A DNA stretch of 64,000 bases, taken from the NCBI GenBank assembly GCA_951406725.2, contig OX597819.1, positions 92,690,001 through 92,754,000 on the forward strand, read 5' to 3'. Positions 6,231 to 57,288 of the stretch are shown here, piece by piece (position 1 is the stretch's first letter; the number at the start of each line of letters is the position of its first letter). The translations under genes were made by a program, and so were the position numbers. The notes under the pieces were generated by a model. The model saw only the letters and a list, made by a program, of their open reading frames with translations. It did not search any database and was not told the origin of the DNA. Source of the stretch: Octopus vulgaris (Eukaryota).

Positions 6231-8102
6231 AATCTCTCTCTCACTCTCTCTCTCTCTCTCTCTCTCTCTTATATACATATACACATGTATAGTTGAAATT
6301 TACAGACAAGCTGAAGACAAAGACAGGTGTATTGGTTTGAAGCTCGGCGAGGAGAGAAAAGAAGGATTTCATGAAAACATAACAAACGGATAATTTGACT
6401 AAATCATAACACAATGAAAATTAATATCTAGTTCCTCATCAGCCAACGTCCAAGAGATCATAACAGTTTCGCGCTGTTATCGTTGAGACCATTCCTTACT
6501 GGATGTGCCAGTTGTAAAGAACCACTTGAAATAGCTAACTAATGGACAGGAAAATGACGAAAACAAACAAGACAAACTGAAATAATTAAAATAATTGTAC
6601 ATATACGACAAAAACAAAAACAGCTGTATAGCTACCAGCCAGAAGAATATGGGTAACCCAAAATAAAATGAAAATGTCCTAAAGGACTGGAGACAAGAGA
6701 ATGACAGAAGGAAGGATGATGTATACAAACCGTGGAGGAAGAGGTTGAAAGAGCACAAAAAAGCATCACCGGCCTTGATGTCGGCAAAGCAAACAAGAAT
6801 GTCACAGGCTTAGATGGTTACGGCTCACAAGTAGTGGGAGGAGAATGAAAGAATCGTGGAGGGCAGGGAGAAGAAACGTAGGAGAGTAATCGGGATGGAA
6901 AGAGAGAAAGCAGAGATAGAGAGAGAGGGTGAAAGTCAGAGAGACATAGAGATGAAGGAAAAAGAGTGGCAAAGAAAAGAAAAGTGTCAGATTTGAGAAA
7001 CGTACACAAAATATTCCAAGAATATTTTTGTGACTGGGGAAAAAGTATAAGGAGTGTGTTGCGTTGCATAAATAACATTTCAAGGATTTCATACAGACAT
7101 AAGAAAGGGAAAATTTAAGTAGAACAAGCGGAAATTTTGACGATATACACACGTATATATATTATAAAAGAGAATCGAATCTCCGTCTATCTGTCAGTGA
7201 CAACTTCTATGTGAAGGAGGAGATGAGGAGGAATCGAAATATACGTCACAAGGTATATGTACAAGAAGGCGAGCAGACAACGTTGTTGTTGAGAGATAAA
7301 TACAGTGACAAAGAGAAAGAGAGAGAGGGAAGGAGGAAGTTCGAGTGTGTATGATGGATAGATAGACAAATAGATTGATAAATAGATAGTGTTGTCACCA
7401 AAGTAACTAACAAGTTTTGATTAAAAAATGCAGGAATTTTAAGTGTAAGCCTGTCAACACAATACAACACAGATAACATATCTATCTTTTTGGTTATTTC
7501 TGTATGTGTGTGTGTGTGTATGTGTGTGTGTGTGTGTGTGTGTATTTCTGCATGATAATGTGTTTCTGTATGTCTTTCAACATATAGAGAACGCAACACA
7601 GAAATTAAAATAACTTCGATATAATAGCAAGATGTTGTTGTTGTTGTTGTTGTTGTTGAGGGAGAGAGAAAGAGAGATAGATAGATAGAAAGAAAGAGAG
7701 TGAGTGAGAGTGTGTGTGCGTGTGTGTGTCTATGTGAAAGAGAGAAATACAGTGAAAGAGAGAGAAAAAGAGATTGAGAGTGTGTGTATGTGCATGTGTA
7801 TGTGTGTATGTGTGTTTGTGTGTGTGTGTGTGTGTGTGTGTGTGTGAGTGTGACAGATAGAAATGAAATTTTGCTTCAAGAAAAACGAGCGGGTTGTTGC
7901 TGAGCATATCAATGTGATCAATAGTATAGGCTTCTGCTGAAGGTTCATCTTGAGTAGGTCGTTACCCGGCAGTGTAGCGATGGATGGGGTTTAGTAGATA
8001 TATTTTATGTATACACTCATGTCACACACACACATGCACTCTCCCTCTCTCTTACTTTCTCTCCCTCTCTCGTACGCACACACAAACACACACATATATA
8101 CT

Positions 8103-9032
8103 CTTTACTCTGTATTACTCTTTTACTTGTTTCAGTCATTTGACTGCGGCCATGCTAAAGCACAACCTTTAGTCGAGCAAATCGACCCCAGGACTTATTC
8201 TTTGTAAGCCTAGTACTTATTCTATCGGTCTCTTTGGCCGAACCGGTAAGTTACTGGTACGTAACACACCAGCATCGGTTGCCAAGCGATGTTGGGGGGA
8301 GAATACAGAAACACAAGAACACACACATACACACGCACACACACACACACACACAAACACACACACACATACACACACATAAATATATATATATATATAT
8401 ATATATTATATTAAATTAGAGATAAAACCACTATTAGGCAAATCAAACAATGAAAAACATAAGCCAATACATAAAATTAATTTAATTTATATTATTTTAA
8501 ATATATATCAAATATTAAAAGTTTAATAAAAGGTAAAGAGTAAAACTCTACGATCGTTTCATGGCTGTACCAATTCGAATAACAATAATTTAAATTCAAT
8601 TAATAATTCGAGTTATGGTTACATTAAATCTTCAGGTTAATTGAAATATTTAAAAAATAATCAGAAATATTTAAACAATATTTTTACGATATAAATAATA
8701 TAATAATTTTACTTATATTAAACTATATTATCAAACTAGAAACATAAAACTTAACAATTATGATTATATCAAAATCAACTATAATGTTAAATATTAATTT
8801 TAATTTAAAAGGTAGGAAACCCACCAATAATCTAATATATATATATATATATGTATATATACATATATACGACGGGCCTCTTTCATTTTCCGTCTACAAA
8901 TCCACTCACAAGGCTTTGGTCGGCCCGAGGCCATAGTAGAAGACACTTGCCCAACGTGCCACGCAGTGGGGCTGAACCCGGAACCATGTGGTTCGTAAGG
9001 AAACTACTTAGCACACAGCCACTACTACAGGC
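8103..9032 (-). mobile_element. Octopus OR/OK-like tRNA SINE with internal microsatellite and a nested insert at ~8412-8835
   Basis: Head ..GTGGCTGTGTG..GGTTCAGCCCCACTGCGTGGCAC.TTGGGCAAGTG at 9032-8870; 3' body and tail at 8320-8103; many copies in the window. Confidence 0.85.
8543..8642 (-). ncRNA. Hammerhead motif with long AT-rich stem II
   Basis: Minus strand CTGAAGA (8635-8629) ... GAAAC-GATC-GTA (8560-8549); stem II hairpin includes TCGAAT/ATTCGA; stem I weak. Confidence 0.6.
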
Positions 9033-9384
9033 ACACATATTGCTTGGCACAAAAGTAAATTTCACATTATAAATCTCACTTATAACACTTAATATCATTT
9101 TTGTAACGCAAATTAAATTAAGTTGATTATTAAATATTTTTTATATTAATTTCCGGTTTTTCTTTAGCTTTTTCATAACTTTTTGCTTTTCACTTGCACG
9201 CAAAAATGCCAGAGGATAATGTTTCCCATATTTCTTCACCGATTTCTGTATGCAATAAATAACCTGTCTTAAGTGCATCTCTTTCACTTTCTCTGTTGAT
9301 TACGGAATACTATTCGATTTACATCATTGTTCGTGCAAAAAAACATAGTCCACGTGAAAATTTCAGTGAAAGATATACATAGAT

Positions 9385-9815
9385 AGGCGCAGAAGTGGCT
9401 GTGTGGTAAGTAGCGTGCTTACAAACCACATGGTCCCGGGTTCAGTCCCACTGCATTGCACCTTGGGCAAGGGTCTTCTACTATAGCCTCGGGCCGACCA
9501 AAGCCTTATGAGTGGATTAGTTAGACGGAAACTGGAAGACGCCCGTCGTATATGTATATATATATATATATATATATATATATATATATATATGCGTGTG
9601 TGTATATGTTTGTGTCTGTTTGTCCCCCCAGCATCGCTTGACAAGCGATGCAGGTGTATTTACGTCCCCGTAACTTAGCAGTTCGGCCAAATAAACCGAT
9701 AGAATAAGTACTAGGCTTACAAAAAATAAGCTCTAGGGTCATTTTGCTCGACTATAAAGGCGATGCTCCAGCATGGCCACAGTGACATGACTGAAACAAG
9801 TAAAAGAGTAAAGAG
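9385..9815 (+). mobile_element. OR/OK-like tRNA SINE, near full length
   Basis: AGGCGCAGAAGTGGCTGTGTGGTAAG head, ACCTTGGGCAAG CORE-like motif, internal (TA)n, GAAACAAGTAAAAGAGT tail. Confidence 0.9.
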
Positions 9816-54794: not shown

Positions 54795-55184
54795 TCTTTT
54801 ACTCTTTTCTCTTTTACTTGTTTTAGTCATTTAGTCGCGCAAATCGACCCCGGGACTTATTCTTTGTAAGCCCAGTACTTATTGTATCGGTCTCTTTTGC
54901 CGAACCGCTAAGTGACGGGAACGTAAACACACCAGCATCGGTTGTCAAACAATGCTAGGGGGACAAACAGACACACACACAAACACACACATACACACAT
55001 ATACATATATATACATATATACGACAGGCTTCTTTCAGTTTCCGTCTACCAAATCCACTCACAAGGCATTGGTCGGCCCGGGGCTATAGCAGAAGACACT
55101 TGCCCAAGATGCCACGCAGTGGGACTGAACCCGGAACCATGTGGTTGGTTAGCAAGCTACTTACCACACAGCCACTCCTGCGCC
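54795..55184 (-). mobile_element. OR/OK-like tRNA SINE
   Basis: Reverse-complement similarity to 9385-9815. Confidence 0.9.
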
Positions 55185-56108
55185 TGAGGATATTTTTTTC
55201 ATTTCTATATTTTCTTACTTCCTTCTCTCCGTTGGCGGTGTACTTAGCTTATGATCCACACGCTTGGGTATTCTAGAAATCGTTGTAAGAGACTATCTTT
55301 TTATCATAACTACTTTGTGATATGATTATATTCTGTATTTAAATTAAATGTGTTTCAAGTGATGCCGAATGATTTGCCTTTTCCTTTTCTATTTTAATAC
55401 ATATGCCCCAGCATGACCGCAGTCTAATGAATGAAACAAATAATACATATATATATTCTGTTTTATTTTTGGAACTCATTTCTCATCATACTCGCTGCAG
55501 CTTTACTTATTGATGATGATACGGGGTTGGAGTTTTCGCTGCTGAGGTTGATTTTTCCTTTTATGCTTTTGAGGTCGATAGAGAAGATATCCGTGAAGCA
55601 TTGGGTTCGATATAATTGCTCCATTTACTGAAACTTGCTGACTTTGAACCAAAGAATTATATACATATTTATGTATATATATATATATATATATATATAT
55701 ATATATATATATATATATATATATATATATACACGAAGGTGTGCTGATGAGTTTCTGACTTTAATGGTATCGTGAAAGGCCTGGATGGAGGTCCAACTTT
55801 TACAGTACTTAGAAAATCTGAAGAAAGTTGCAATATGCATATGAATATGAGTGGGAAATATGTTGAAGAAAATCATAATTAACTGGCCCTCTTGTACTTT
55901 TTAAACAAAGTCCAGGAAATTTTCAGCAGGCCCACGTGTATGTGTATGTACTTTAACCTGATGGTGCTTTGTTTTACTTGGAAGCAATATTACTGTATTG
56001 CACTATTTAATAATTTCTCTCTCTCTCTTCTCTCTCTCTCTCTCTCTCTCTCTCTATATATATATATATATATATATATATATATATGCGTGTGTGTGTG
56101 TTCATTTA

Positions 56109-56476
56109 TACGTAGTCTGATCAATAAGTATCCTGCCTGTTGCTATGTTAACGAAGCTGAAGTATGGAGAGTGAAACTGCTAGGCAAAGACTGACCTAGA
56201 ACTCTGCTTTGCATGCGCACTAAGTTTTAACGTTCTAACTCACTTCCACTGTTTACAGTAGTGCTTGGACGGAAGGTATGTAGCTTATGATCGTCGCATT
56301 GACCATGACAGGGAACGTTTAGCAGAGAATCTGCATCAAATTTTCTCAGAAGCTTGGCCATACCAGATCGGAGGTCTACGCAAAGCGTACAAAAGGTTTT
56401 CACAATTCTCGCCACGAACAAGATCTCGTGCAACTGAAACCCGAGCGTTTTTCTGGGCAGCTGAAAGCAGTTTTGG
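56109..56476 (+). mobile_element. Mariner 5' end with transposase N-terminus relic
   Basis: TACGTAGTCTGATCAATAAGT TIR-like start; QRICIKFSQKLGHT resembles the mariner N-terminus. Confidence 0.6.
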
Positions 56477-57288
56477 CATATATATGTATGTGTATATACA
56501 TGTATATATGTATATATATGTATATATATACATATATGTATATATATATATATTATATATATATAAACCAGCGCCACGAGACCATCGTTGTCTTTGTCTG
56601 CCGTAAAAGGCATTTTTTTCCAAATACGCCAGCTAAACTAAGTTGTACAGTCTTTAGTCGTAAGACACCCGCTGTTTTTGTCCTGTTATTACTATTATTG
56701 ATTGTTGTATTTATATTCGTGTGGCATCGTCCGTTTTTCTGTCCTTGTTTCGTATACATTCGATCCTTTTTCCAAGAAATCTAATGCTCGTAGCTTAGTT
56801 TTTCCTTGGGGCTGGCCGGATCGGAGCGATCTCAAGATTAATCAGCCGAAATTGCGAGGATGATCCGGTTCTTGACTGAAGATGGAAGGCTTCGAATGTC
56901 CCGTCCGTGTTTTTTGTATCGTCTTCTAAATGTTTTACCTTCTTGTCCCAGTTTGTATTTTTCTACATATAATATAATATATATATATATATATATATAT
57001 ATATATACAGACACATGCATCCACACACACATACACGCACACACGCATACATAGTCAATTTAAAGAAATTGTCAATAAACGAATAAAACGGACAACATAA
57101 GGACGTGCATAAAAATCATATTAGCATGACGCTCGGTGAAAAGAAATCTCCAACGGCACAAATGTAGCCCCATTGCTGATTCATACACACACACACACAC
57201 ACACACACACACACACACACACACACACACACACACACACACACACACACGCATATATATATATATATACATATATATATATATATAT

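Follow-up and report, generated by a model that had tools for sequence, protein, structure and literature searches.

Hammerhead ribozyme cores cut after an NUH triplet. The accessible text of Eckert et al. 2023 (PMC10085705) treats the hammerhead as three blocks, C, G and S, each assumed to be unbroken, and counts six orders of them. The S-G-C and C-S-G types cleave, type SGC requiring all four of its stems; in both, a short linker leads from stem I into stem II, and a helix links the other ends of these stems. According to the same text, type SGC (HRIMA-1) is known from metatranscriptomes alone, with none in genomes of known organisms, and type CSG from two metagenome sequences. The hammerheads of Penelope-like elements (PLEs), for which re-ligation or circles were proposed, usually have one extra base between A9 and G10.1 (PMC4209133), and a viroid hammerhead tolerates one (PMC3705267). 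Naiads, as characterised in the accessible portions of Craig et al. 2021 (PMC8557442), favour (TA)n and are without canonical hammerheads; some hold core halves at odd spacing, and the annotations 'HHR_core' and 'half_core' are left unexplained. Here we analysed a window of 64,000 nucleotides from Octopus vulgaris (GenBank assembly GCA_951406725.2, contig OX597819.1, positions 92,690,001 to 92,754,000 of the forward strand; the window is this whole stretch, and positions are counted within it), in which five repeats carry a recurrent RNA motif, and found that this motif is a probable new hammerhead variant with a rearranged core.

A sequence-only reading of the window had described the motif as a triple-helix pseudoknot of helices A and B, a segment x and helix C, ending in CUGANGA. 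All five sites that it located are present at its coordinates and strands. Helices A, B and C exist and covary, as proposed; the layout was incomplete in that stem III, the NUH triplet and two additional helices, D and E, had been overlooked, and instead of a triple helix there are three separate helices. In the copy at 56810 the end of segment x pairs with bases 3' of GAAA, and AUC and then helix C come next, which identifies helix C as stem I and helix A as stem II; a stem III and the cleavage triplet are there as well. Family majority sequences restore every helix and reveal D, in which the sequence 5' of E pairs with that 3' of CUGANGA, and hairpin E, which lies directly 5' of the stem II 5' strand. 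The corrected order from 5' to 3' is D 5', hairpin E, II 5', B 5', III 3', NUH, I 5', linker, II 3', GAAA, III 5', B 3', I 3', CUGANGA and D 3' (Table 1). In this topology D, E, B and III are nested, while I and II form pseudoknots. D and E are contiguous on the 5' strand, the chain going out and returning between A9 and G10.1, and B plus a linker of 1-5 nucleotides connect the outer ends of stems I and II. The order of the blocks is S-G-C, not CGS, GSC or SCG, by which we rejected membership in types I-III, and the family consensuses are not ordinary type I hammerheads. Every core element is present (CUGANGA, GAAA, A15.1-U16.1, NUH, stems I-III and G10.1-C11.1), and a separate new ribozyme class, as had been put forward, is unsupported; the evidence matches the last option of that reading, a rewired hammerhead in Penelope-type terminal repeats.

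Table 1. Positions of the motif copies, their parts and neighbouring features in the window
Feature	Position	Strand	Remarks
Intact rearranged hammerhead, family F56	56765..56889	+	pairs: I 6/6, II 5/5, III 4/4, B 8/8, E 7/8, D 6/7
F56 copy, upstream parts	D 5' 56765-71; hairpin E 56772-809; II 5' 56810-14; B 5' 56815-22; III 3' 56826-29	+	
F56 copy, site parts	I 5' 56832-37; linker 56838-42; II 3' 56843-47	+	AUC, predicted cut after 56831
F56 copy, downstream parts	GAAA 56848-51; III 5' 56852-55; B 3' 56862-69; I 3' 56870-75; CUGAAGA 56876-82; D 3' 56883-89	+	
5'-truncated copy of the non-coding ~830-bp F56 monomer	56566..56978	+	flanked by (TA)n tracts
Decayed copy, family F50	50667..50790	-	II 5' from 50750; triplet AUG ends at 50726; stem I 3/6
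Decayed copy, family F16	16763..16883	-	II 5' from 16848; U16.1 lost; triplet ends at 16822
Decayed copy, family F12	12179..12303	-	II 5' from 12265; GUA ends at 12237; GAAA is GAAC at 12220-12217
Partly decayed copy, family F6	6425..6537	-	core intact; GUC ends at 6487; I 6/6, III 4/4, II 3/5
U6 small nuclear RNA copy	5293-5399	-	83 bits, above the Rfam gathering score; several core changes, likely pseudogene
PLE-like reverse transcriptase remnant	57741-58214	+	
GIY-YIG endonuclease remnant	48368-49102	-	
LINE-like reverse transcriptase remnant	59346-60319	-	

The copy at 56810 is the only intact one of the five. Damage in the old copies, whose upstream coordinates were read by hand from sequences and alignment rows, consists of G at H17 (50726), the missing U16.1 (16822), C instead of A15.1 (12217) and the incomplete stem II of the copy at 6508. 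The claimed adjacency to (TA)n takes the form of a (TA)3 that starts 88-118 bases 3' of CUGANGA in four copies and 167 bases in the fifth. The pattern GAAA-N8-30-CTGANGA occurs 11 times in the window compared to 2.9 expected, a count reached by 0/100 shuffles. Enrichment is seen for the ordinary order too (10 sites, 3.5 expected), and at least one of these sites is a separate type I hammerhead (16498).

Every window copy was assigned to a repeat family, F56, F50, F16, F12 or F6 (first-look candidates 1885, 61, 674, 471 and 3223), and 30 loci were sampled per family. A full descriptor requiring I, II, III, B and the core had one match in the window, the copy at 56810, and none in 30 window shuffles. 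On 180 loci preselected for the motif it gave 76 matches, against 0 in the reversed and 0 in the shuffled loci, and it was found in 25 of the 30 F56 loci. In the whole 2.8-Gb genome a tight pattern had 9,327 sites compared to 677 for the reversed pattern. Clustering of 131 matches yielded additional families and subfamilies. A seventh family has the same split-core layout with other helix sequences (L234(-) 2161, L237(-) 7041, L325(+) 427 and L166).

Covariation was assessed in nine (sub)family rows, seven majority sequences and two single copies; six partial F6 loci were dropped and six others were separated by eye as F6b. Pairing exceeded the strand-swap mean in stem I (53/54 vs 35.2), stem II (44/45 vs 24.1), stem III (36/36 vs 19.6) and helix B (51/54 vs 25.6), none of 5000 strand swaps reached the observed values, and many positions showed three or four pair types. 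In the alignment that scored these four helices D was mis-indexed for two rows. Scored for themselves, D paired at 47/54 (swap mean 31.6) and E at 49/54 (32.4), each with 0/5000 swaps and with one row (F6a) mis-registered for D and E. Among the core elements, CUGANGA beside stem I, GAAA between II and III, A15.1-U16.1 and NUH were present in 9/9 rows, the triplet being AUC, AUA, GUC or GUA, and 10.1-11.1 was G-C in 8/9. Free folds with ViennaRNA, in which pseudoknots are not possible, contained both D and E for the majority of rows, and for some rows B together with III. Together, these results demonstrate that six helices, I, II, III, B, D and E, covary across nine repeat (sub)families, as the covariation check suggested with the original reading had anticipated for A, B and C. 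The other check, against Rfam, found no existing hammerhead family: further searches and the 150 of 276 window matches that were listed contained no hammerhead or other ribozyme match at the motif, and the microRNA matches were rejected as noise from (TA)n and inverted repeats.

The F56 family is a non-coding unit of ~830 bp. One locus (L202) holds eight F56 units head to tail, spaced by 830-832 bases (one by 655) with the motif in each, and F56 copies that extend past one unit mostly run into the ribozyme-bearing end of another. In most copies, 80-120 bases separate the motif from the 3' end. We compared the 5' ends of F56 copies chosen by their 3' tail alone, taking the first 92 of 545 places in genome order, with the predicted cut at 71 bases from the tail marker. 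Ten of the 92 ends fell at 68-73 bases, compared to 1.3 expected at the background rate (p ~1e-6); three were exactly at 71, only three lay within 74-111, and the densest 6-base windows across 0-330 were 69-74 and 68-73. No RNA data set was listed as containing the stretch; in four runs guessed to be RNA it occurs as contigs, which reveal neither ends nor strand. We can only guess at a partner that mobilises F56 in trans, the reverse transcriptase-endonuclease family L233-L242 (10 loci), which inserts in (TA)n. This young PLE family (e.g. G000:C18:76999500-77008000) combines an intact 753-aa reverse transcriptase and C-terminal GIY-YIG with a second frame of ~340-380 aa located upstream; its minimal 3' hammerhead is type I-like, with UUGACAA in place of CUGANGA in the core. 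As a carrier of the motif it was rejected, since the motif of L234 is a separate insertion behind (TA)n and the family's own 3' untranslated region (UTR) hammerhead is type I-like.

The layout was also seen in published Naiads. We read the Naiad consensi of Craig 2021 File S5 by eye around CUGANGA (55/62 ctgatga, all 43 ctgaaga, 23 ctgacga, 25 ctgagga, and part 12), a reading that misses motifs broken by line ends and in which some consensus names rest on file order. Among the 54 consensi, 10 showed the split-core layout, namely Beroe (two stem I pairs only), three Acropora, one Clytia, Morbakka-2, Pomphorhynchus, one arthropod and two Octopus. Six, all from nematodes, showed the C-S-G order and by eye are textbook type CSG, and two, both from spiders, showed an SGC-like fold. 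None of these layouts was seen by eye in the bivalve part of the file, and four CUGACGA-ending matches in its Darwinula/Limulus region were not assignable by eye. The tail of the published Octopus Naiad is present among the repeats of the octopus genome (643 matches for the motif, 0 for the control). This sixth family was recognised by the motif of the published Octopus consensi, and its 5'-truncated representative L201 has a broken reverse transcriptase (RVT_1, E 1.3e-5, below the curated cut-off) in an open reading frame (ORF) that ends ~800 bases upstream of the motif. Naiads are also characterised by an N-terminal GIY-YIG endonuclease and a CxC linker. A decayed second PLE (reverse transcriptase plus C-terminal part, 1828-2586) lies directly upstream of this truncated Naiad copy. 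Of 30 Naiad reverse transcriptase loci, 12 had the motif downstream on the same strand, the query's own locus included. The motif repeats share a (TA)n target, a fixed 3' end, variable 5' truncation and tandem or inverted copies. The five window repeats are tails of PLEs; these features are shared with other PLE clades and are not diagnostic of Naiads. Since the same layout occurs in published Naiads said to be without canonical hammerhead, the motif is likely their missing, predicted self-cutting RNA.

We therefore favour the following explanation. The motif holds all hammerhead core elements in S-G-C order, an upstream strand completing stem II, and we assign a probability of roughly 0.8 to its folding into a predicted self-cleaving hammerhead that cuts transcripts of Naiad-type PLEs and their non-coding derivatives after NUH. 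With somewhat less assurance, we think it probable that this is a seventh hammerhead wiring, active despite a core opened at A9/G10.1 by two helices, and the ancestral ribozyme of Naiads. One non-circular circuit would then have been opened at three points according to lineage (split core in ctenophore, cnidarian, acanthocephalan, arthropod and octopus, C-S-G in nematodes, S-G-C-like in spiders), with thousands of genomic copies missed by current descriptors and an in vivo cutting footprint in the starts of copies. In such a fold D would stack on E, keeping A9 and G10.1 adjacent, and folding would be complete only once the D 3' strand has been transcribed. Tandem transcripts could be cut into monomers, the two cut products being still clamped by D, II, B and III, which might favour re-ligation or circularisation. 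The PLE reverse transcriptase may use the TA-rich unit junction to prime at nicked (TA)n, and reverse transcription would often run off at the cut, so that copies begin there.

Several observations weigh against this explanation. The two-helix insertion at A9/G10.1 far exceeds the one-base insertion known from the viroid hammerhead, in which an inserted C or G impaired cleavage (PMC3705267). The majority of old copies are broken, the full descriptor being found in 2/30 loci of F6, 3/30 of F12, 8/30 of F16 and 10/30 of F50. The covariation nulls are lenient, since the rows include two pairs of related subfamilies and best pairing decided the registers of II, B and E. Eight F56 ends lie at 62-64 on the TA-rich linker and may reflect (TA)n microhomology. 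The pile-up at the cut site was absent in F50 (0/20 ends within 2 bases) and weak in the Naiad family (3/20 between -5 and +2, none between +3 and +20), these samples being the first 20 copies in genome order of 364 and 386 matches; in F50 the inverted partner of L342 was left out. Finally, for the five window families tblastn with six PLE protein pieces on 150 upstream flanks revealed no linked PLE ORF in the nearest 1.5 kb; the exceptions, PLE fragments on the same strand at a distance of 0.9-1.4 kb in two loci of F56 and one of F16, are apparently separate insertions.

The motif could instead be an ordinary type-SGC hammerhead, in which one extra base precedes G10.1, supplied by the G two bases after CUGANGA, with helix A stacked beyond it and D fraying or aiding folding. 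The original reading had found that types I and II do not fit, and indeed, between the strand 3' of CUGANGA and the strand 5' of GAAA, 16/45 positions pair (null 17.2), compared to 44/45 for the upstream strand. When one base is skipped, the main rival register, pairing rises to 28/45 (null 22.7; 86/5000 swaps), with G-C at the first position in 7/9 families, and one extra base is what PLE hammerheads usually have at this point (PMC4209133). Yet this register fails in F56, the youngest family, where the C is faced by a U. By eye it also fails in Naiad consensi from Acropora, Clytia, Morbakka, Pomphorhynchus and one arthropod; the G in question pairs with C of the D 5' strand in 6/9 rows, while the upstream strand supplies G10.1 in 8/9. 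We rejected both a type II and a plain SGC stem II on these counts, and regard the ordinary type-SGC reading as unlikely. Slightly less likely still is that the fold derives from a hammerhead but has lost its cutting activity and is used by the PLE protein as a 3' recognition or priming signal. The fixed place of the motif near the 3' end, the large insertion that opens the core and the F50 family without a pile-up would suit such a signal; against it, the sequences of all helices change across families and phyla whereas CUGANGA, GAAA, A-U and NUH are retained, the 5' ends of F56 copies cluster at the predicted cut, and in nematode Naiads the C-S-G form, whose cleavage has been demonstrated (PMC10085705), is intact. 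Chance pairing within decayed low-complexity repeats might be suspected from the four broken copies among the five of the window, but this idea is already refuted by the genome pattern, descriptor and covariation counts given above, and the same layout recurs in unrelated phyla.

Other elements were noted in the window. At 16385-16563 there is an inverted pair of ordinary type I hammerheads with long stem II (cores 16498+ and 16450-), for which Rfam made no call. The pair adjoins a GIY-YIG remnant at 15711-16229(-) and represents a second, canonical type of PLE next to the F16 copy. The sequence CACGTGA lies ~260-310 bases upstream of the ribozyme at 51040, 51010, 17119 and 12574 (all on the minus strand) and in the F56 unit of L202; it is common to three window copies and the F56 unit, whose families are otherwise unalike, and could be a shared promoter element.

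If the favoured explanation is true, it would answer why Naiads, a major retroelement clade, seem to be without a ribozyme, and the argument for hammerheads as dispensable PLE passengers would fall away. Non-circularly permuted hammerheads would go from metatranscriptome rarities to abundant elements of animal genomes, the assumption of just six hammerhead wirings would be broken, and the open port at A9/G10.1 would offer a new attachment place for sensor domains. The literature within reach of our search, passages of a 2026 retrozyme preprint and a 2026 NAR paper included, contained no permuted hammerhead in Naiads or any animal genome and no helices at A9/G10.1; subscription papers lay largely beyond it, as did Weinberg 2015 (PMC4509812), which is cited for hammerheads with additional helices. 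In the accessible parts of Forgia 2023 and a 2019 review no hammerhead variant with a helix at A9/G10.1 was found.

Compared to the described systems, as far as their accessible texts define them, the octopus motif resembles type SGC (PMC10085705) in its site-GAAA-CUGANGA order, short linker from I 5' to II 3', interaction helix and full core. Type SGC has its II 5' strand directly (0-2 nt) after CUGANGA and its ends at stem III, whereas in the octopus motif II 5' comes from upstream, B 5' enters stem III and the ends exit via D beside E. With type CSG it shares the same circuit, opened elsewhere, although CSG keeps block C whole and is without D or E. Here block C is split, the chain exiting after A9 via D and returning via E to G10.1, so that the same circuit is opened inside the core; this break contradicts the assumption of unbroken blocks in PMC10085705. 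The position near the 3' end is like that of the type I hammerheads of PLE pseudo-long terminal repeats and non-LTR retrozymes (PMC4209133, bioRxiv 10.64898/2026.07.22.740005). F56 is also like the non-LTR retrozymes in forming non-coding head-to-tail arrays with one predicted ribozyme per unit, but theirs are type I, often minimal and dimer-dependent, in contrast to full stems I-III, a double pseudoknot and a unit of ~830 bp in octopus. Similar to Naiads (PMC8557442) are the (TA)n targets, the tandem and inverted partial copies, the reverse transcriptase at the ORF C-terminus, seen in the family of L201, and the motif in the 3' UTR; for the five window families no linked ORF was found in the loci sampled from this genome.

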